Source: a virus
Virus record (IMG/VR): IMGVR_UViG_3300013093_000001
Span: 1-64,000 of that record
Strand: one strand, 5' to 3'
Length of the DNA: 64,000 bases
Below the pieces are notes generated by a model. That model saw nothing but the letters and a program-made list of their open reading frames with translations. It searched no databases and was not told where the DNA came from. Made by a program: the position numbers and the translations under genes. Positions 42,764 to 64,000 of the stretch are shown piece after piece. Position 1 is the first letter of the stretch. Every line of letters starts with the position of its first letter.

Positions 42764-43477
42764 TCAGGTAATTATTCGGGTGTAACCGTTCCAAGCATCT
42801 AAAATATCGCGACAGAAATCCTCTGACCTCCACGCTGGCGGCCCCTCCTCAATCTCTTGGACATAATGCCGTATAGCTGCTCGTCCATCAAAGCCAACGT
42901 CTACGCCCCACACCGTGAAGGCTGCCCACTTGCGGCCACAAGGGGGGCATTTGCCGCAAGCCCTGCCCCTGACCGGCTCATAACAGGAAAACGTGTCTTT
43001 GACCATGCGCTTACCATCAAACCCCCTGGTCAAACATTCTCCGACCAAAGCGGCCTTCGTCAATCTATACACCGGCAACTCAACCTTGACATTTCTCCCG
43101 TCAGGTAACCACCGCTGGACGGCGAATAAATACTCTGTCAGGTTGTTCAACCTGCTGACGAACTCCAAATCCTTGTCGTGGCCGGTACTGCTGTCAACGG
43201 ACCCCATCTGAATCCTGTCACCGTAGTTGGCGGCTACGAGCGCCAATATAGCGTTGCGACCGGGGATGACTTTGGAGTCCTGCAATTCATAATTCCCCAA
43301 TTGGCGCAGGTCAGCTACTTCTAACCGGCCAGTAAATCCAGGTGGCTTCTTAAGCCGACGATACTCCTGCTCCCCGTATCGCCCCCCCATGCGGCAGTAG
43401 AGCAACACGTCAGGCTTTGTCAACAGACTCATGCAATAACTGTCAACCCCACCACTGTAGAGCGCTACAACGGTCAC
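42764..43477 (-). CDS. QueC-like PP-loop ATPase (divergent second copy)
   Basis: LYSGGVDS, IPGRN, TK..LV, SCY, CGKCPPC; lacks the YPDCR motif. Confidence 0.8.
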   Translation of the reverse strand: MTVVALYSGGVDSYCMSLLTKPDVLLYCRMGGRYGEQEYRRLKKPPGFTGRLEVADLRQLGNYELQDSKVIPGRNAILALVAANYGDRIQMGSVDSSTGHDKDLEFVSRLNNLTEYLFAVQRWLPDGRNVKVELPVYRLTKAALVGECLTRGFDGKRMVKDTFSCYEPVRGRACGKCPPCGRKWAAFTVWGVDVGFDGRAAIRHYVQEIEEGPPAWRSEDFCRDILDAWNGYTRIIT

Positions 43478-51847: not shown

Positions 51848-52858
51848 ATGTTCGAACCACCGGAAATAATTTCTGAGCAACTCTACGCTGGACCGGGTGC
51901 TGCTCCGATGTTGACGGCGGCGGCAGGCTGGCAGGGCACTGCGAACAACCTAGCTGGTACAGGTCAAGACTTCGCTCGTATTATCTCCCAAATCCCCTGG
52001 TCGGGACCAAGTTCAGAATCGATGCGCGCAACGGCAGCGTCTTACGCGACGTGGCTATTCGCGACAGCGGAACAAGCCGCGCAGACCGCTGCCTTGGCGC
52101 ACGCCGCCGCAACGGCCTATGAATTAGCACGCGCGACCGCCATACCACCGGAAGCTGTGACATGTAACAGAATGCAACTGGCAATACTGACGGCAACCAA
52201 CATCCTCGGCATGAACTCCGTTGCTATCGCAGCCACAGAATCCCAGTACGCAGAGATGTGGACACAAGATATAGCCGCTATGACAGCCTACAGCGCAACA
52301 TCTGCTGAGCTAACGAGCGCATTACCGAATTGGACTACGCCCCCCGCCGCAACGGCTCCACCATCAGCACCTGCTATTTGGACTTATTTACTCGGAGGTC
52401 AAACAATCCCACAGCTGTTTTGGACTACTTTCCAAGCCAATCTGAGCAGCGGACCATTTTCTTTACCGCTGCAACTCCTCAGCCTGTTTACAGTGCTATG
52501 GGCCACCGGCAGTCCCGACAGCCCTATCAATCAAATACTGGGGCTGGCCCAGAATCCGGTCATTGCGCCGCCAACATACCTAGCAGAGCCGTTGGCGACA
52601 GCGCCAACACCTCAAATACGCGCCAACATGGGCAGCGGCAATACTCTGGGACCGCTGCGGGTGCCTCCGACATGGGCACAACCGCCTAAGCAACTAGTTC
52701 CCCGACCCATTACCGTCAACACAGTGGGATCGGAACTAGAACCCTACCCGTTGGGACTGCCGATACTGACAGGTAGCGGCGGTACGACCACGCGGAAACC
52801 GTTACCCGAATACGGCAAGAGCTCGACCGTGATGGTCAAACACCCATATGGCGGCTAG
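51848..52858 (+). CDS. PPE family protein (SVP-like C-terminus)
   Basis: PPEIIS..LYAGPG..PM..AA.GW, WSGPSS, IPPE.V..NR, TNILG.N..AIA.TE.QY.EMW.QD..AM..Y; LGPLRVPPTW. Confidence 0.92.
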   Translation: MFEPPEIISEQLYAGPGAAPMLTAAAGWQGTANNLAGTGQDFARIISQIPWSGPSSESMRATAASYATWLFATAEQAAQTAALAHAAATAYELARATAIPPEAVTCNRMQLAILTATNILGMNSVAIAATESQYAEMWTQDIAAMTAYSATSAELTSALPNWTTPPAATAPPSAPAIWTYLLGGQTIPQLFWTTFQANLSSGPFSLPLQLLSLFTVLWATGSPDSPINQILGLAQNPVIAPPTYLAEPLATAPTPQIRANMGSGNTLGPLRVPPTWAQPPKQLVPRPITVNTVGSELEPYPLGLPILTGSGGTTTRKPLPEYGKSSTVMVKHPYGG

Positions 52859-54668: not shown

Positions 54669-54743
54669 CTTTCCTCCTGTCGGGTCTGACCTCGTGTCAG
54701 ACCTCGTGTCGCGGCAAGGTAGTGAGCCTTGCCGGGACGAACT

Positions 54744-57700
54744 TTACGCTGGCGTGTCTGGGCCAAACATAGAGCGCAAGTAATTGAGCTCTTCTTTTTT
54801 GAGCTCACTGACATAGCGCAACTCGCCGCAGTGTTCGCAACTATGCGGGTGGTCATTGCCACCGTCGCATGAGCCACACACCCAATCGTCATACGTCAAT
54901 CTACTGCTACCTGCCTCTCTTGGTCACATTGAACTTGCCAGCCTTCAAGCGGTCTACTAATTCTCCCAATGCCGCCTCAAAACCGTCCGCGAAGGCGCTC
55001 GCTTCGTTTTGGTCCAGGTTTTTTCGTCTTTGCACAGCCACATGGGAGAGTGTTCCAGTTGGTCACGGACCCCGGCGACTGCTTCTTGACACCACTCCTC
55101 AACCGCGTGCTCGTCAAACTCCATTGTTGCCTTCCTATAAATTGGTCCTGGCCTGTGCCAATACTCGCGTCCCGGTAAGGTAATAAGCCTTACCGGGACT
55201 GTACTAATAATTAGTACGCTTCACCACACCGGCAACCACAGTTACGACGTTATCGGTTCTCCGCGTTGTTCGCCGCGTGCATTGTCCCAGGTATACATCA
55301 TGACATCGAGTGCATTAATGAACCTGACGTACATCTCCGATCCTGTCGGAAGGTAGCGCGGTATAGTTGCGCGTTGATCCCGACCGGTTACGGTTTCCGT
55401 CAAATGCACGTCCACTTGTATGCCGTCGTAGTCAATGCTGACCCTGATCGTCACGACCTAGACTCCCGCTGCATTATACGAATTTCGTCACGGATAACTG
55501 GGTGCCAAAAACTGTTAATTTCCGTTCCTGGTGTCCAATTTTGACGTGCCCACGACCGAAATTCTGCTTCTTCCTCCGGGGTCAAGTCACGGAAAATGCT
55601 CTCAAACTGACCCGACTTGCTGTTGCGGATCATTAAATTCCCCTCCGCATAGTCAAAACATGCGCTGCATGAGCTAAATTAATCCAAGCGTCAGCAAGTT
55701 GTATCTGACAATTGACTGTCAGTCTCTGACCTAGCGGACCATTCTCCACCGCAGTGAGTATTTTTTCTGCTTTCCGCAGGTACTCAACGGTTTCCATTCC
55801 TCCTCCAATCACCTTGGCCGGTTGCCAAGGACAGCGCCTGGGCGGGGCACTGAACCCCACCCAGGCTTCCTCAATCTTTGTAAATCTTGGACCCCAATGC
55901 TTCTTCGGTCGCAATGACCAAATTCTGCATTGTAGTCAACTCCTGCTCCGTGGTTTCCGCCGCCATTGGCATCATCTCAACCCGGTACTCGACAATTTCG
56001 TCAAAACCAGCTTCTAGGTGGTCGTCAACGATTTTGGCAGCAGTAGCCGCTGTCATGCCGGGGTTATTCTCTCGCAGTTGCTGGATAAGTTCGCTGCGAC
56101 TGCCTCGGTAAACTCGGCTCTGGCCTTCCGGCCTCTTGCCGTCAGTCATTTTGGCCGTCAACGTCGATATACAGCGTCCTGCTTGCACCCGGTCCTGTTT
56201 CAACGGTAATAGAAGCGTGGTCACCGTCAAAAACGATTTCAGCACTCCTGACTGCTTCCAACGACCGCTGCTTCACCGCCGCATACTTTGCGTCATGCGC
56301 CGCAAGACTCGCCGCCAAAGGACTTCTGTCTGTCAGGAATCCTGGGACTCGTTCTGACTGCAACCACTTGACCAAACCACTGACAAATTCTCGTGGTAAG
56401 GAAACCGTTGCTTCTGGCGCCTGCTCTACCATTGTGCCAAGCAGCGCATGGGGCCGGTTATTGACGACGGCAAGCATGACATCCAATGCCGGGTTAAGCT
56501 GCTCCAGCGGTAACTCCACGTCCCAGTCCAGACGGTCGAATGCCTGATCGGCTAGTTCGACAGCCCTATTTCGCACGGACTGCAACACGTCAGCAGTATT
56601 AGTATCTGCCATGTTTAACTTCTCCTCTAATCTAGTGCAGGTCGGCTCTTTGCCGACCTCGTACCGGGTGCCGGTACGACCCGACACCCGGCCTCTTTTT
56701 ACGCTACAGCCTCAACGCGGTGGGTGTAAAAACACCCATTCTTCCCGCAGTCCACTTCCTGCTGCACAAGCGACCACATTGCGTCCCACACGCCGAATAG
56801 CAAATCATAATCGGACGGACGACGACCCAAACCGAAATCGTCTTCCGGCTTCATAAACATTGCTATGATCTCGCGTAGCGCCGCTGTCACAATGTCCTTC
56901 GCTGCGTCACACCAAACGAAATTCACGTCTGCCGGGTCGAAGCCCCGGTACCACGACCTCGGTCCCGGCGCTGGCTCTAAACCAGCGTTGGACCGCTCAA
57001 TTTGAGCGGCCCTGTACGCCTTCGTGTCGTGGCAGTCGCAGTAATTCCTGTCAGACGCGACAATCTCATCACTGGCAAGTAACTGCCAAATACTGAGATG
57101 GACACCGGCAAGCAACTCGCTGTCACTGGTCCTGCTGTGCAGGTCCGTGGCATACAAGTCCACGACCTCACGCAAAGCATCCTTCAGGATATCCGTGGCA
57201 TCTTCACACCACAGATAGTCGTCTGACTTTTTGTCGTCTTGGTACTCCCAAGCCATACTTTTCTCCTCCACTATGGGAACCGGCCTTTGCCAGTCCCTCG
57301 TACCCCGGCCGGATTTGACACCGACCGGGGCTGACCTACTACCTACCCTGCGGGAACTCTTCCTGAATCAAAGCGGTGATAAACGCTTTGTGGTCAGCCA
57401 GGGCTTTATTCAGCGCAACGATCACGCCATACACCGCTTGTCGCTCTCGCCAGTCCTGCATCTGCTCCTCGTAGTATTGTCCAGCGGTGACCGTGGAAGC
57501 AGGCAAACGGAACTGTTTGTCCTCACTAAGCGAGTTTAGTATCGCGTTAGGGTCGTCCGGCTTCTGGGGTTGCGGTTCGTTGCCAACAACAGGAGAAAAA
57601 CCCCAGTATTGTGCTTCCAGATGATCGATCAGACCTGTCAGAAATTGCTGCGTTATCGGGAAGCCGTCTTCTCCTGCTGGCTGATCATCCGTCAACACAA

Positions 57701-57803
57701 CGTCGGCAGCCTGCTTCAGCGCTAGCTTCAACGTGCTGCCAGGTACTTCCAAGACGTAATGATCACACGCCTCGTCAATCCGACGCTGCAATTCTGTTGT
57801 CAT
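54744..57803 (-). CDS. Small hypothetical genes (54744..54899, ~54907..55124, 55242..55454, 55451..55633, 55633..55797, 55871..~56148, 56142..56612, 56699..57256, 57339..57803)
   Basis: Starts refined to the ATG/TTG following each RBS; no function recognised. Confidence 0.6.
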
Positions 57804-57878
57804 CTTTCCTCCAATCTGACCCGACCCTTTGCCGGGTTCGTACCCCGGTCAGGCTCGACCCTGACCGGGGCTGGGCAG

Positions 57879-58736
57879 CTAGCTGACCTTCCTGGTCGGC
57901 GCTGCTCGCTTAGCTGGCGCTTTCTTAGGCGCAGCCTTCTTAGCTGGTGTCTTACCAGCCGGATGCCGCTTGACGGACGCTTCCAGCTGCGCCATCAAGT
58001 CGGACACGTCGTCGTCGCGCTGGTCCAGATCAACGACGCTGGTCAACACGCCACCCTTAGCTTTCGTGTCAATCAACGCCGCGACCTGCGCGGTGTAGGT
58101 GTCAACGAAGTTGGCGGGACTAAAGTCCTCAATCATGCTGTCAACGACTGCGTGCGCCATTTCCAGCATTTTGGGTGACTCAATGGTCCCGTTTAAATGC
58201 TGCAAACCATTAGCGTCACGGATTTCGTCCAGCCAAATCAGGGTGTGCATGACCAACACGTTGCCAAGGACGCGGATGACAGCCATTTGCTGTCGTGTTC
58301 GCAACACAAACTTTGCGACCGCAACAACATCTGACTCCACCATGACCCGACGCAACAGCGCGTAACCTTGAGAGCTGTTGTCTGTGGGTTCCAAAAAGTA
58401 ACTGGACTCCCACATAATCGGGTCAATCTCGTCACTGTGACAAAACTGGACCACCTCAATGGCCGACAACTTATTGGCTTCCTGCAACTGCGCCAGGTCG
58501 TCATCGGTAATAACGACAATCTTGTCGTCATCAACCAGCTTGCCTTTAATGACTTCGTCAGACCGTGGGTTGACGCCACACTTCTTACACACGCGGGGCT
58601 GACCAATCGCACCCTCGCAACCTGCATGGAACAGGTTAAACGAGATGTCATGGCTGTCCGTTGCCTTGTAGAGTTTGACACCCACATTCACTAAACCGAA
58701 GTTCAGTGACGTGTTTTTCACTGATCTCATACCCAT
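57879..58736 (-). CDS. ku: Ku DNA end-binding protein
   Basis: SLNFGLVNV.VKLY.AT, I.V.QF...EIDP....SYFL.P, GYALLR, F.DTY, DV.DLMA.LEASV, basic PAKKA tail. Confidence 0.95.
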   Translation of the reverse strand: MGMRSVKNTSLNFGLVNVGVKLYKATDSHDISFNLFHAGCEGAIGQPRVCKKCGVNPRSDEVIKGKLVDDDKIVVITDDDLAQLQEANKLSAIEVVQFCHSDEIDPIMWESSYFLEPTDNSSQGYALLRRVMVESDVVAVAKFVLRTRQQMAVIRVLGNVLVMHTLIWLDEIRDANGLQHLNGTIESPKMLEMAHAVVDSMIEDFSPANFVDTYTAQVAALIDTKAKGGVLTSVVDLDQRDDDVSDLMAQLEASVKRHPAGKTPAKKAAPKKAPAKRAAPTRKVS

Positions 58737-58897
58737 GTTTTCCTCCTCCACGGCGACCCTTTGCCACCGCTTATTTATTTTAGCCAGACAACTGGCTACT
58801 CACCACCCGGTGGTGGCGAAATCTATGACCCCTCCAGGTAAAATCTCCTCAATACAGGGGAGGTGTAACGACCCGTCAGGTTCGCTACACCCCCTCC

Positions 58898-61800
58898 CTA
58901 CTCAGGGTGGTAAATGCCGTGCATTTCGTCTAGGCATTTGTCGCAGTGCTTGACGTAAGACGGCTTTCCGTCAACTAGCCAAAACTCTGTACCATAAATC
59001 TGGTTTGGCAATATCTGCCTCACGCATGTACTACAGGCATGGCTCTTCCTTGCTCGGCGGTACCGGGTCTCACCTAGCTGTAATTCATCAATCCAGTCAA
59101 CTTCTTCTGGATCATCCCTGTAGCCAGCGTAGATGCTAGCCACAATGCCACCGCAGCATTTGAGAATAGTTGACGCAACCCTCTGCGTAACCCTCGGTAT
59201 ACATTTCCGCTCTCTGCTGGTCGTATTGCCGCTCCGACTCCTTGTACTGCGCGAGCAGTTCAGGCGACAGACGTGACTCGTCAACAGTCAACAAAACTCG
59301 CTGACCATTGCACACAGAGCAAAGCGCATCATAGACACCCGACTTGTAATCCTGCCAAAAGTCGGGGTCTTGATCGTACATTTCATCCTGGGTCATACCG
59401 CCCTCCCAGCAATCATGCACACCGCGACCTTCACAACGCCAGCAGACCTCGTACTTGTCGGGCAAGTTGACGCTCGTCGGTCCGTCTTCGCTGTTTGCGT
59501 CGGTACCAAGCATCTGGTACTTCATGCTTCTCTCCTCCTAACCGGGCTGGCTTGTGCCAGCCTCGCACCCTGGCCGGGTTCGACCCCGGCCAGGGCTCGT
59601 CAGGCCAATCCCCTGACGTACAGGTAACCCTTCACCCGTTCGGCCAGCTCGTAAGCGGAATCGATGATATCCAATTCGTTGGACGAATTGTCATACCGCT
59701 CGTAAAACTGGTTCAGCGCAGCCACGACCGCCTTTGCGTCGTATTCTTGCCGCTCCTGCATAATCGGCAATGACTGCGGCGACCACCAGTGGCCGCTCAC
59801 ATACCCGGCTTGAAGTCGAAGTACACACGCGGGTTGTGCGTGAACTCCATGACACCTTCGACACGGTCCGACTTCCGTCGGACCATGACGTATGGAGCAG
59901 AGAAGCCAATGACTTCAAATTCTGCCTGTAACTGCTCGGTGTCCCACGTCTGTCCCTCTGGCTTGCGACCAGAGTCGTAGTTGTGGATTTCAATACCTGA
60001 CATTTTTCCTCCTCCACTTGGGTCGGCCTGGTGCCGACCTCGCGCCGTGGTTGAGTTCGACCCCAACCACGGCAATTCTTAGTCTCAAACCCGCAGCGTA
60101 ACAGCCTGCGGGTTCCTCAACCCAACCGCGAAGGTGTGGTCACCACCGACATCCGTATTACAATGACGGCAGTAGGTTGTAGCACCTACCACTGACAGCG
60201 CTGATCGCACCCAGGCGAAATGATCGCCAACACACGGCAGGCAAACAGCGCCTCCAGGTTGACCGCACTCCTGCATTGCAATATGCGTTGCTTCCCGTTT
60301 GCCACACAGGCCACACCGAATTACCCCGCCAGCTACCTCAGCTAACGAATAAATCTCCCTGAGAGTTTCGATATATGCTTCACCCGTTTTCTCGCTGAGA
60401 GACTCAAGTAATTCTGCTATTAATTCTTCTCCCATGTTTCCTCCTCCTTGTGGCTGGTTGTCAGCCCCGTGCGCTGGCCGGGTAATGAACCCGGCCAGGG
60501 CTGTGTCATAGCCGCGACAGGACACCGTTAATTAGTTCTGCCACCGCATCCAACGTCACGCCACCAGACAATTTTAGCTTCTCAGCAACATAATCAGCGC
60601 TGACCGGACTGTCGAAGGTGTATGCCCCGCAGGACTTGACTGCAACGAATACCTGCCTGTGGTTGACATAACTGATCGTATTGCTGCCACCGACGTCGCA
60701 AGGCGATGCAAACAAAATCCGCAGCGCAGTAGCCTGTCTATCCGTCCAAAGCAGAGCGACCGACCCGTAGTAATTCATATCGAACACCACGGCGTCGAAT
60801 GTACCGTCGCTGTTGACAACCTGATTGTATTCGTCAAGCGTGTACTGCCGCTCACCCATCACTCTGGTCCGTTCGCCCAAAAATCCAGCAACTCAAGAAT
60901 TCCGGTGAGGGCTTCGGCAATAGCTATCTGCGCGTGGTCCTGGCTAGTTGGACGCAAATCCGCACGCCCGTTTTTAGCCCAACCGATCCGCTCTCGCGCA
61001 TTTTTCAGGTGTTGATTCACTTTTCCTCCAATCTGGTCCGGCATTTGCCGGACTCGTACCCCGGCCAGGTTCGACCCTGGCCGGGGCGTGTCTAGCTCGC
61101 TATGACGCCGCTACCCTCGCAACGCAGGCAGGTCTGGTATCCCAGCGACTCGTGGTCGTAGTCAAACCATTGCGACCCTGGTTCAAGTTGCAGAAGCTTG
61201 CTGCGGTGCAATTCCTCGCTGTAGTTAAAGCCTTCGCCGCTGCAACCCGCGCAAGTGCGCTTGCCTGTCAACTGCAATTCCAGTTCGTAGACAATCGCCG
61301 CAACCTCACAGTTGCAAATATTGACGCTGTGATCGCAACCCAAATCGTCTGAGAGGTATTCAATCAACGACGCCACCAGCGCCTTGGGTACAGGTTGACT
61401 GTCACCCCGCTCTGGGTGTTTTTCCATCTCAGCGCGGTAGTCAGCGATCTCAGTTCTGCGCATCAATGTCCAAGACGGACGTTCGATGGGGTCACTGACC
61501 CGCAACGCCTCACTCAGCAGGACATTCTCAATTTCGACCCACTCAGTAGACATCTCTCCTCCTAACTGGGCTGGCCTCTTGCCAGCCTCGTACCCCGGCC
61601 AGGTTCGACCCTGACCGGGGCTATTTCAACGAACCGTGAACGACACGGTCATTCCGTCACTCCTACGGTCTATCCTGTCACGCAAACGCGACAGCGAAGC
61701 AAACAGGTGTGCGTGTGGGACTGCTGCAACACCGAACCGTTTGAAACCACCTGGATCGTCAAACTCATCTGCTAAAAACGACTCCGTGTAGTAGTCCTCT

Positions 61801-62667
61801 GCGTCTTCGTCAACGTAGCGCACAACTAATCTCCTCACAGGCAACGGACTCAACTCAGCCAGCAACGGCTCCCACAAGCATTGATCGGCAGTGAACGTCA
61901 CTTCGTTCTTCGGCCAGCCAAACGTGTCCCTCGGTCCTTCTGACACCCAAGACCAACCTAGCCCTACGGCCATAGTCCGTATGTTTGCTCGGTTTTTCTC
62001 TGCAATCTCGTACTCGTACTGCACAGTTTTTTCCTCCTCCTAACTGGTCTGGCTCATGCCAGACTCGTACCCGGTACAGGTTCGACCCTGTACCGGGCGC
62101 TACCGCTAAACCTTCTGCTTACGCGGCTCAAACTCGGTCACAATCGGTTGCGTAGCAGACCCATGATGTGTCCAGTGGTAGTACCCCATCTGGTCAACAC
62201 CAGTGAACTCTAAGGGTGGCGGGAACTCTACTAAAACATAGCCGTAACCCAACCGGGCACCTTGCTGCCGGAAGTTATGTTTGGCTTCCGACACGCTGCT
62301 GCCTCGACCCCAGCGGTTTTGACCCATCACAAGGAATGTGGACATTCTTTCCTCCAATCTGACCCGACCTCTTGCCGGGTTCGCGTCCTAGCCAGGTTCG
62401 ACCCTGACTAGGACTCCTTTATTAGTCTTGGGTACCGTAGCTACCCAACCTGCCACGCAATTCTTTCAGCGTGTCAATCTCCCGCGTCAACTGGTTGGCG
62501 TGTGCTTTGGCGACTTCCAGCGCCGCGTTCCCAACCGCTCGGGTGATGTGCCTGAGCGTGGCATTGATGTGGCTGATGTCAGTGGACTGCCGCAACCACA
62601 TCGCGTCCCGCAAGCAGCCATCCAACTCCAAAACCAAGTCGTTGATGGCGTCTTGTAAGTGCTCCAT
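58898..62667 (-). CDS. Small hypothetical genes (58898..~59143, 59136..59525, 59600..59800, 59797..60003, 60085..60435, 60506..60859, 60859..61020, 61092..61553, 61626..62024, 62106..62345, 62422..62667)
   Basis: Most begin directly after a repeat copy and a GGAGG RBS; several carry CxxC or CxxCxGxG motifs. Confidence 0.65.
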
Positions 62668-62740
62668 TTTCCTCCTTCTAACTGGCTGACTCTTTGTCAG
62701 CCTCGTACCCCGGCCAGTTCTGACACTGGCCGGGGCCACC

Positions 62741-63271
62741 TCACGCCGCAAATGCGTCGTACCACACCTTCCGCTTGTCACCACAGCAAGGGCCATAAAA
62801 CCACCCACGCCTATTAACTCTAAGCCGGTGCGCTGTCACGTTACCGTGACAGTAGAAGCAATGCGGGACCAGCTTACCGTCAGCTATCGTAAACTCTAGC
62901 TGCTGCCTCGGCTTATTGTTCCAGCCAACAAAGAACCTAAAAATTCTCAGGTGACTGGTATGACGCATCAAATGCAATGACCTTGCTAGCCTCGCTAACC
63001 GCAGCAGGGCTAAACCACCACCTGCCACGGGCAGTAACGCTGCCACAATGACACAAGCATCAAACACGTTCCAAAAAGACCGGAAGAAAAGCCTGGTAAA
63101 CGCGACACGAAGAGCCAGTTCACACGCAAAGAACAGCAAAACAGCGTTGTCCAGCCGCTCAAGTAATTCAGCGTTCGTGTCATCTACAAGGCTCCACGCC
63201 ACCAGACCAAGGTTGGTTAGAATTGCGACCATCACTACCCGGTCTAGCGGGGAAGACCTGTTGTGCGACAT
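62741..63271 (-). CDS. Voltage-sensor-domain (Ion_trans S1-S4) protein without pore
   Basis: F..E..LR (S2), FFRS.WNVFD..VI (S3), LRLARLAR.L.L.R (S4); no pore helices follow. Confidence 0.8.
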   Translation of the reverse strand: MSHNRSSPLDRVVMVAILTNLGLVAWSLVDDTNAELLERLDNAVLLFFACELALRVAFTRLFFRSFWNVFDACVIVAALLPVAGGGLALLRLARLARSLHLMRHTSHLRIFRFFVGWNNKPRQQLEFTIADGKLVPHCFYCHGNVTAHRLRVNRRGWFYGPCCGDKRKVWYDAFAA

Positions 63272-63327
63272 TTCTCATAAACCTCCTCCTAACATCCCCG
63301 ACCCTGTGTCGGGGAAATCTGTGTGGG

Positions 63328-63444
63328 GAGGCGGCGGCGCAGGTACTGCGCCCGAGCCATGTAACCGGGCAAGGCAATCCTTGCTTCCATTGCCACCAAA
63401 AATGAATGAAAACGGTGGGATGGTGAGTTTAACGCCGCCGCCTC
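63328..63444 (-). ncRNA. Putative structured RNA, three-way junction, copy 1 of a tandem pair
   Basis: 12-bp closing stem GAGGCGGCGGCG/CGCCGCCGCCUC; junction sequences conserved with copy 2. Confidence 0.65.
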
Positions 63445-63477
63445 AAGCCTCAAAAAGTTTGTGTGGAAAGGTGGTGG

Positions 63478-63598
63478 GGGGGCGGCGGCGCAGGTACTAC
63501 ACGCCCCGTAGTAAAAGGGCGCTTATTGGTAGTCCTTACTTTCCAATTTCCCACCAGCAAGGAACGAGAAATTGGTTGAGCTTAACGCCGCCGCCTCC
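63478..63598 (-). ncRNA. Putative structured RNA, three-way junction, copy 2 of a tandem pair
   Basis: Same architecture as copy 1 with different but pairing P2/P3 sequences. Confidence 0.65.
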
Positions 63599-63601
63599 AG
63601 C

Positions 63602-63844
63602 CTATGCTGACCGCCGTGAAGCGGCCATCGTTCGTACCTTGCTGACCACCCAGCGGGTGAATTTTACAAGATAACGAACTGCTGTGACCAAGAACCACGC
63701 GAGGCAAGCGAAAATCAGCAGTTCAGACAACTTGCGATTCTTTCGCATAACGCTCAGTATCACTTCTCCAGCGATTAGCTGGACCGCGTTACTGCTCAGG
63801 TGCTTCGTCAGTTCTTCAAACTGGTTTGGTCGTTCAAGCAACAC
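63602..63844 (-). CDS. Small hypothetical membrane protein
   Basis: GTG start after GGAGGAAAG and a repeat copy; one hydrophobic segment. Confidence 0.55.
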   Translation of the reverse strand: MLLERPNQFEELTKHLSSNAVQLIAGEVILSVMRKNRKLSELLIFACLAWFLVTAVRYLVKFTRWVVSKVRTMAASRRSA

Positions 63845-64000
63845 CTTTCCTCCTCTCCTAAGCTGGCCTTATGCCAGCTTCGTGTCCAGCACGACTTCGA
63901 CATCGTGCTGGACTTCCTTACTTGCGGTGACCGTGACCGGCGATGTTGTAATGACCGATATCACCACTTGATGTACCGGGTTGGTCGCTGCGGAACACGG

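Follow-up and report, generated by a model that had tools for sequence, protein, structure and literature searches.

Tandem three-way junctions in an actinobacteriophage genome are divergent members of an apparently uncatalogued structured RNA family

Introduction

Mu-gpT-DE, a motif of a 224-motif survey that is held in Rfam, is reportedly an orphan RNA element lying downstream of a phage gene, recognized by comparative analysis and with no known function. Type I hammerhead ribozymes are frequent in the intergenic regions of phages, sometimes in several copies, and hammerhead and twister ribozymes alike show such a scattered multi-copy distribution in phage genomes. Other small structured phage RNAs, i.e., the C4 RNA of P1 and P7 and the species 1 and 2 RNAs of T4, are cut from longer transcripts by host enzymes, and stable small RNAs typically have a long closing helix (P1 clamp). 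Kink-turns, which in textbook form consist of a three-base bulge followed by G-A, with G-A on the opposite strand, beside a canonical stem, are known from several riboswitch aptamers, among them SAM-I, lysine and c-di-GMP-II. Here we examine a tandem pair of predicted three-way-junction RNAs on the minus strand of IMG/VR virus record IMGVR_UViG_3300013093_000001, positions 1 to 64,000 (the window, i.e., the whole stretch of 64,000 nucleotides (nt) that was analyzed).

The source record is a viral sequence of 113,905 bp with direct terminal repeats and 55.7% G+C, of which the window is the initial 64 kb. An original prediction, made from the letters of the window, had placed the two RNAs in the leader of a voltage-sensor gene and read them as a tandem riboswitch or, alternatively, as a ribozyme or processing element. 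We find that the two folds are divergent members of an apparently uncatalogued family of structured RNAs of actinobacteriophages (phages of mycobacteria and their relatives), the occurrence of which does not depend on the identity of the neighboring genes.

Results

Two tandem three-way junctions in an intergenic gap

The gap of ~330 nt between an open reading frame (ORF) of 80 amino acids (aa) and one of 176 aa, the latter being the voltage-sensor-like or channel-like gene, contains two three-way junctions of ~115 nt each on the minus strand (Table 1). That it holds two diverged copies was the starting point of the original prediction, and the strings quoted there are all present, i.e., GGCGGCGGCG, UUAARCUCA, AAGYA, AGG-AYURC with GYAGU-A-CCU, a G, and CGCCGCCGCC. 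The copies have the same closing helix and the same junction letters but different arms: in each, a 10-bp G+C helix, P1 (GGCGGCGGCG/CGCCGCCGCC), is lengthened by a U.G pair, after which follow UAARCUCA, hairpin P2, AAGYA and P3, a helix with AGG at its start, CCU at its end and one bulged A. Between the copies, neither P2 nor the distal part of P3 can be aligned, yet both pair in the folds, and at the base of P3 two pairs differ and are compensated, in keeping with the covariation and the bulged A that had been described. The flanks of the copies also resemble each other, and copy 1 begins 6 nt past the TAG stop codon (63604-63602) of the upstream gene.

Folded singly, copies 1 and 2 both took up this junction, with energies of -58.1 and -58.0 kcal/mol and z-scores of -5.5 and -5.1, and none of 200 shuffled sequences folded as well as either. 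Compared with shuffles, the minus strand (z -5.4) outperformed the plus strand (z -3.4), and a 19-mer, GGCGGCGGCGTTAARCTCA, occurs twice against an expectation of 0.02. No frame is open in all copies of the phage; a coding reading was rejected, as every shared frame contains stops and a 28-codon ORF with a UUG start in copy 2 is not conserved. The fold z-scores, the repeated 19-mer, the minus-strand preference and the lack of a shared open frame together confirm the observation of two copies. Neither a promoter nor a U-tract terminator belonging to the junction RNAs was found in the source phage.

Incidentally, the P1 strands at 63433-63442 and 63481-63490 are identical across the copies, and a hairpin around the C-rich spacer could form between the 3' strand of copy 1 and its counterpart on the 5' side of copy 2. 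This alternative pairing accounts for weak alignments of the region to the Rfam models CcsR1 and mir-1824.

Variant contigs from two other lake-water sequencing runs carry copy 1 without any listed difference, the spacer with one 1-nt deletion and one substitution, and copy 2 with five substitutions. Two of the latter, at 63377 in P3 and 63398 in P2, turn G.U into G-C; that at 63385 turns U-A into U.G, that at 63387 breaks the outermost P2 pair, and that at 63431 alters the Y position of J1/2, the strand joining P1 and P2. Since their clustering could reflect a recombination patch, we drew no inference on constraint from these variants. Joints and loose ends at cassette borders in the same contigs, probably breaks in the graph caused by repeated hairpins, were left unused.

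Junction RNAs among hairpin-framed cassettes

Genes in this part of the genome are separated by a recurrent inter-gene element, ~40 of which were listed by script between 52 and 80 kb. Its order is stop codon, hairpin B (12 bp with a GUCGAA-like 6-nt loop), (A/G)CGAG, hairpin A, a strong Shine-Dalgarno (SD) sequence and start codon. As had been predicted, the tandem pair sits in the place of hairpin B: the two-copy gap is without hairpin B and the ACGAG linker, and the junction RNAs are followed directly by hairpin A and the SD. The exact double-hairpin signature had no match in other IMG/VR contigs. Of note, the 12-bp stem with its T-loop-like loop resembles a tRNA acceptor/T-arm minihelix, and on account of this likeness it may be worth testing whether the inter-gene elements serve as punctuation for RNase P or RNase Z.

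Repeated motifs at gene borders have been described in mycobacteriophages, namely the start-associated sequences of cluster K (PMC3203893) and a 17-bp dyad repeat of cluster O (PMC4351075), both of them short, sequence-conserved DNA thought to bind proteins (PMC3203893, PMC4351075). They are likewise short repeated elements at gene borders, a likeness that concerns mainly the double-hairpin elements framing the junction RNAs; the junction element itself, unlike these repeats, is a fold of ~100-200 nt with covarying helices.

A covariance model built from copies 1 and 2 only (R1) scored a third copy in the source phage at 28.9 bits, outside the window at genome positions 68699-68904 (L007:4699-4904). 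This copy is 206 nt long with much larger arms, and a search with R1 with filters off failed to recover it. It folds likewise and retains CGUUAAACUCA, GCAAGGAC and CUGUACCUGCG, whereas its P1 has changed in sequence and still pairs, as 6 bp, an interruption and then AGG/CCU. It takes up a whole gene slot by itself and contains no ORF: the upstream gene is followed by a full double-hairpin element, the RNA, a second full double-hairpin element and the next gene, and the RNA is preceded by an SD-like AGAGGAAG without a start codon. Such a placement speaks against a leader that serves the channel-like gene in particular.

In the same array, a different non-coding stretch of ~330 nt, present as two diverged copies, also fills gene slots on the minus strand (L007:6280-6720 and L007:11300-11760; ~70331-70650 and 75350-75694 on the genome). 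Both copies contain GUGAUUUCCUCUAACCUCCAAAC, which is complementary to the SD consensus of the array, UUGGAGG...GAGGAAA; they had no Rfam match and are unrelated to the junction RNA.

Members in other phages

The original prediction had proposed searching for homologues with a model of the two copies, and such homologues exist, with covariation. Among 30 related IMG/VR records, whose DNA was searched directly with R1 (cmsearch), one matched beyond the source phage: a 127-kb phage (G003) with a 70% identical capsid carries a member at L100:622-733 (36.8 bits, E 3e-6). Its P1 is GGCGGGCGCG/CGCGCCCGCC, with two pairs swapped relative to the source phage, and it has UCAAAC, GCAAGG, a P3 with a bulged U, and CCUGCG, beginning 7 nt past a stop codon. 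A further member, in G007, differs from that of G003 at none of the 241 bases compared and does not count as independent. The G003 element also contains an ATG with a good SD, AAGGGCGGA, that opens a 111-codon ORF (L100:683-1018, plus strand), in which the G+C signal at third codon positions (GC3) is clear only from about position 780.

A relaxed pattern of the parts common to four sequences, GCGTYAARC ... GYAAGG ... CCTGCGC, was then used in a single scan of IMG/VR and gave 62 loci, at which a script tested the pairing of the seven bases outside the pattern-fixed GCG/CGC. A perfect 10-bp P1, in many different sequences, was found at 23 of them and 6-9 pairs at 8 more, while the rest had 3-4 pairs, no more than one of them beyond the fixed GCG/CGC. 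Run on 401 Actinomycetota genomes, this pattern yielded one match versus three for a reversed control, and we accordingly regard the motif as enriched in phage DNA. Stricter patterns, run on IMG/VR and metagenome data, returned chance matches without P1 or nothing; they had required CTCA and GTACCTG, which are peculiar to the source phage. As for mimicry of a host RNA, R1 gave one weak match in 151 Actinomycetota genomes (E 0.02 per genome), which lacks the junction strings and was taken as chance.

A second, core-only search model (R2), an artificial seed of four typed and trimmed sequences with their arms replaced by GAAA loops, scored copy 1 at 56.5 bits (E 6e-11), copy 2 at 57.5 bits (E 3e-11) and 14 other members at E < 0.01. 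Weak R2 matches in G002 (20.9 bits) and G017 (18.7 bits) were taken as chance.

Two cultured Mycobacterium phages carry members, Weirdo19 (MN103533.1, 46275-46382) and JustASigh (PP750961.1, 49049-49181). The annotation of both places tiny hypothetical genes, 28-52 codons long, across the RNA (L255:2036-2158, Weirdo19 gp72; L256:1854-2082, JustASigh genes 78 and 79), and these are probably annotation artefacts. In blastn against cultured phages, the window region and the member at L225 had no match.

At gathering thresholds, Rfam 15 gave no match anywhere in the genome, the window included, or at 12 member loci; at E up to 5-10 there were only unrelated weak matches, none of them on the element in four further member loci. 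Literature searches found no description of the motif.

Consensus and covariation

The family consensus reads P1, U.G, YAARC, P2, GYA, AGG-P3a, CAYGA ... GA, a bulged base, CCUG, P1', in which CAYGA and the GA facing it form a kink-turn signature. P1 is a very stable G+C helix of 10-17 bp, free in sequence and ending in the U.G pair (16 of 16 aligned members), and P2 is a short C/G stem with a large loop. P3a comprises 5-6 bp in 18 distinct sequences, all fully paired except two (4/5 and 5/6). It leads into C[A/C]YGA on the 5' strand in 18 of 23 members, 14 of which have GA opposite; between these two lies the hairpin P3b, after which come P3a' and the single bulged base before CCUG (A in 16 of 23). 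About half of the members have CAUGA, which could at the same time provide a start codon, and the others have CACGA.

The junction strings of the window copies, UUAAGC/UUAAAC, GUA-AGG/GCA-AGG and A-CCUG-CG, agree with those of the family. The kink-turn signature is absent from all three copies of the source phage (copy 1 has CAAUAA and nothing opposite), and for this reason we class the window copies as a divergent subtype.

In an alignment of 16 members fitted to R2, 98.1% of the cells in paired positions were paired, compared with 68.6% in shuffles, and double-sided changes numbered 80, compared with 24.8 +/- 3.6 in shuffles and 13-22 in slid controls. The picture drawn from two copies, a conserved junction with freely varying, covarying stems, is thus borne out by this alignment.

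Covariation of this kind bears on whether the element acts as DNA. The 10-bp inverted repeats at both ends, the multiple copies and the positions at cassette borders could suggest a site of recombination or a mobile element of the miniature inverted-repeat type, in which case the stems would be its terminal repeats. However, the repeats differ completely between members and are complementary nonetheless, which suits a helix but not a site for a transposase or recombinase; the G.U pairs favor the mRNA strand, the element always lies on the coding strand, and the flanks show no target-site duplication. We consider such a DNA element extremely improbable.

A rival reading is a self-cleaving ribozyme of a new class, by which polycistronic phage transcripts would be severed between their cistrons. 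It would account for some 20 near-fixed junction letters amid free stems, for several copies per genome, including a tandem pair, and for scattered intergenic operon positions beside unrelated neighbors; moreover, the kink-turn could fold P3b back onto the junction. Like the type I hammerhead, the element is a three-way junction closed by a helix of its 5' and 3' ends, with conserved junction strands and free stems. Unlike the hammerhead, it has UYAARC in place of CUGANGA (J1/2 reads UUAARCUCA or UCAAAC), P2 is followed by GYA instead of GAAA leading into stem III, and the residue before P1', the equivalent of the cleavage site, is a G paired with U. The absence of the hammerhead core boxes and of similarity to any Rfam ribozyme model agrees with the original failure to match the element to a known consensus. 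In addition, a P1 of 10-17 G+C pairs would keep the products together, and the third copy already lies between two putative processing elements. A self-cleaving ribozyme is, in our judgment, unlikely.

Placement relative to genes

Of 26 members, 16 begin 2-16 nt past the stop codon of an ORF of at least 94 codons, and all members examined lie on the coding strand. The frame of the upstream ORF relative to the motif varies, and there is neither a frame open throughout nor a conserved ORF. At several loci the upstream genes are a major head protein and then a 99-aa head-tail-adaptor-like protein; elsewhere they encode a 501-aa head protein (with the tape measure gene downstream) or proteins without an assigned function. 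A 1257-aa virion protein and small early genes are also among the neighbors. The downstream proteins examined are mutually unrelated and matched no Pfam family, and the tabulation of downstream genes that the original prediction had called for revealed no consistent gene association.

The next start codon lies 16 to ~300 nt away. Some members are followed by an SD and start codon within 16-60 nt, and others lead into a conserved promoter-like stretch or further hairpins. Six members behind capsid and adaptor genes (L253, L239, L225, L214, L204 and L205) have such a conserved stretch, CCACAATTTGRCC.CAGTTACAGATAAC..., 20-70 nt past the element; it looks like a promoter or operator of the next unit. 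In many members, ACCA directly precedes P1 or ACC directly follows it.

These placements weigh against the riboswitch, the leading idea of the original prediction, in which a tandem ligand sensor would control the channel-like gene. Tandem aptamer-like folds directly before one gene, a conserved junction and the presence of QueC in the phage speak for it, as do the kink-turns of known riboswitch aptamers: like those of SAM-I, lysine and c-di-GMP-II, the element is a multi-helix junction with conserved letters and a kink-turn arm able to fold back. Unlike them, it has no gene association across the family, no expression platform and no Rfam similarity, its members usually come after a gene and not before one, and the window copies have no kink-turn. 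Hairpin A separates the SD from the folds, the SD is unpaired with the junction RNAs in the centroid fold and thus not sequestered, no terminator is present, and P1, a G+C helix of 11-13 bp, is too stable to switch. The third copy stands alone and precedes a full inter-gene element instead of an SD, and the junction RNA was not found before the homologue of the gene in an Actinomycetota metagenome-assembled genome (MAG). A tie to the voltage-sensor gene is therefore not supported, and we consider a riboswitch very improbable.

In the window itself, tandem structured RNA repeats directly before a possibly toxic gene, in a phage setting, also recall type III toxin-antitoxin systems (ToxI-like). 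Unlike ToxI arrays, with repeats of ~34-36 nt, the units here are ~150 nt and only two, the downstream protein is Ion_trans-like and no ToxN-like nuclease, and both the third copy and the members elsewhere occur singly, beside unrelated genes.

A start this close to a stop codon falls within the footprint of the terminating ribosome, and is consistent with an RNA directed at ribosomes or acting in trans, in which CUCCUU loops (similar to the 3' end of 16S rRNA) or the AAGG would bind SD regions or ribosomes, or with a device for translational coupling or re-initiation behind the stop. In 12 of 23 members the loop of P2 or of P3b contains a CUCCUU-like run, the junction AAGG is invariant, the long P1 clamp is of the kind seen in stable small RNAs, and the best sub-threshold Rfam match, weak as the resemblance is, was to CcsR1, an RNA with CCUCCUCCC loops. 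On the other hand, half of the members lack the loop motif, J1/2 has no complementary target in the genome, and the distance to the start codon varies as given above, with some members leading to promoter-like sequence or hairpins. We view such a role as doubtful, slightly more so than cleavage by the RNA itself.

Genomic context

All genes surrounding the two-copy gap lie on the minus strand. The N-terminal part of the 176-aa product matched the S1-S4 part of Pfam Ion_trans (PF00520, E 4.9e-13); it is the voltage-sensor half alone, followed by a Cys-rich tail, HCFYCHGN...CCGD. Its nearest relatives are sensor-only proteins of 116-133 aa, one of them from the Actinomycetota MAG, and it has homologues of 99% and 57% identity.

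The major capsid protein shares 47-55% identity with its counterparts in Mycobacterium phages (Omega, LittleE, Typha and Bipper among them) and in two M. abscessus prophages, and other products of the phage include a PPE-family protein, Ku, QueC and an ATP-dependent DNA ligase. On these grounds we identify it as a mycobacteriophage-like actinophage. PPE and Ku in particular point to a mycobacterial host, despite the 55.7% G+C and the lake-water source; the sequencing runs carrying the phage are all of lake-water DNA and none of RNA. No tRNA or tmRNA was found in the source genome by ARAGORN.

Table 1. Positions of the junction RNAs and of surrounding features in the window
Feature	Positions	Strand	Details
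Copy 1	63481-63595	-	P1 63595-63586 / 63490-63481; U63585.G63491
Copy 1, J1/2 and P2		-	J1/2 63584-63576 = UAAGCUCAA; P2 63575-63543
Copy 1, J2/3 and P3		-	J2/3 63542-63537 = AAAGUA; P3 63536-63492, bulged A63495
Spacer between copies	63443-63480	-	C/A-rich, CCCCCACCACCUUUCCACAC...
Copy 2	63330-63442	-	P1 63442-63433 / 63339-63330; U63432.G63340
Copy 2, arms		-	P2 63423-63387; J2/3 AAGCA; P3 63381-63341, bulged A63344
Hairpin A	63296-63314	-	CCCCGAC-ACAGG-GUCGGGG, from the usual inter-gene element of the genome, retained before the SD
Shine-Dalgarno sequence	63282-63290	-	AGGAGGAGG; serves the downstream gene, ATG at 63271
Upstream gene	63602-63844	-	80-aa ORF; copy 1 directly after its stop
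Downstream gene	62741-63271	-	176 aa; S1-S4 half of Ion_trans and Cys-rich tail
Inter-gene element array	54700-64000	-	Continues to ~75300 on the genome; ~40 copies over the whole extent
PPE-family protein	51848-52858	+	PF00823, E 3e-47
Ku homologue	57879-58751	-	E 1e-39
QueC-like protein	42764-43477	-	Predicted product

Discussion

The comparisons made here show a phage-borne element, predicted as a structured RNA, that lies on the coding strand between cistrons irrespective of which genes adjoin it. Of the systems considered, Mu-gpT-DE is reportedly alike in being a structured RNA just downstream of a phage gene, which for the present element, too, is often a major head gene. Unlike Mu-gpT-DE, the element is not bound to one upstream gene, obtained no Rfam score, combines a three-way junction with a kink-turn and belongs to phages of actinobacterial hosts. 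The ACCA before P1 or ACC after it in many members is a likeness to stable phage RNAs that are processed by RNase P. In contrast to the C4 and T4 species 1 and 2 RNAs, processing is here only putative, there is no established similarity in sequence or fold, and ARAGORN found no tRNA-like gene.

The explanation we favor is that the two folds belong to this family and that its members are autonomous intercistronic RNA modules acting on the transcript itself. We assign this combined statement of identity, autonomy and mechanism a probability of about 0.55, which rests mostly on its identity and autonomy part; processing or stability as the mechanism, taken alone, we propose only tentatively. The RNA would be made on the coding strand, within polycistronic phage mRNA, would usually start a few bases behind a stop codon and would fold on its own. 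There it may act on the upstream cistron, whose end it would mark, protect or process, or may be released as a small stable RNA, with the conserved junction and kink-turn as a possible site of catalysis or of protein or nuclease action. RNase P is one candidate enzyme, because many members have ACCA-like or ACC-like flanks. Since the neighboring genes vary, the module would not be specific to the voltage-sensor gene.

Several points weigh against this explanation. Covarying pairs number 7 of 11 in P1 and 5 of 8 in P3 among the 16 aligned members, of which the former are partly a product of the filter, as members were selected for P1 pairing; the inner P1 pairs GCG/CGC and the first three P3 pairs AGG/CCU are fixed by the pattern and cannot covary. 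The source-phage copies depart from the consensus, with UUAARCUCA instead of UCAAAC and no CAYGA/GA kink-turn, and their membership in the family is read from topology, short common strings and one bridging covariance-model match. Judging from the ATG in the G003 element, some members may overlap coding sequence. The transcription, RNA ends and stability of the element we infer from DNA. Furthermore, a plain stabilizer would not need a conserved junction, and it is odd to find the third copy flanked on either side by a complete inter-gene element if its role is to serve an upstream cistron.

A bolder variant is that the family constitutes a new catalytic or sensing class of RNA, either a self-cleaving ribozyme or a junction and kink-turn that recruit a host or phage nuclease, e.g., RNase P. 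We think this rather unlikely, if somewhat less so than the ribozyme taken singly. If it were true, actinobacteriophages would cut or mark their polycistronic transcripts directly behind stop codons, and the source phage would have three kink-turn-less variants of such an RNA beside its ~40 double-hairpin punctuation elements.

The family bears the hallmarks by which riboswitches and ribozymes have been discovered before, namely heavy covariation, a kink-turn and a conserved junction. It is absent from Rfam 15 and is present in dozens of uncultured actinophage contigs and in at least two cultured phages of Mycobacterium smegmatis. As Weirdo19 and JustASigh can be grown and engineered, its function is directly testable. 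The novelty lies at the level of the RNA family, and the role may prove ordinary, e.g., protection of mRNA 3' ends. For the source phage, the 330-nt gap can now be read as RNA cargo or punctuation within a series of some 40 hairpin-framed cassettes, and not as the regulatory leader of a channel-like gene.

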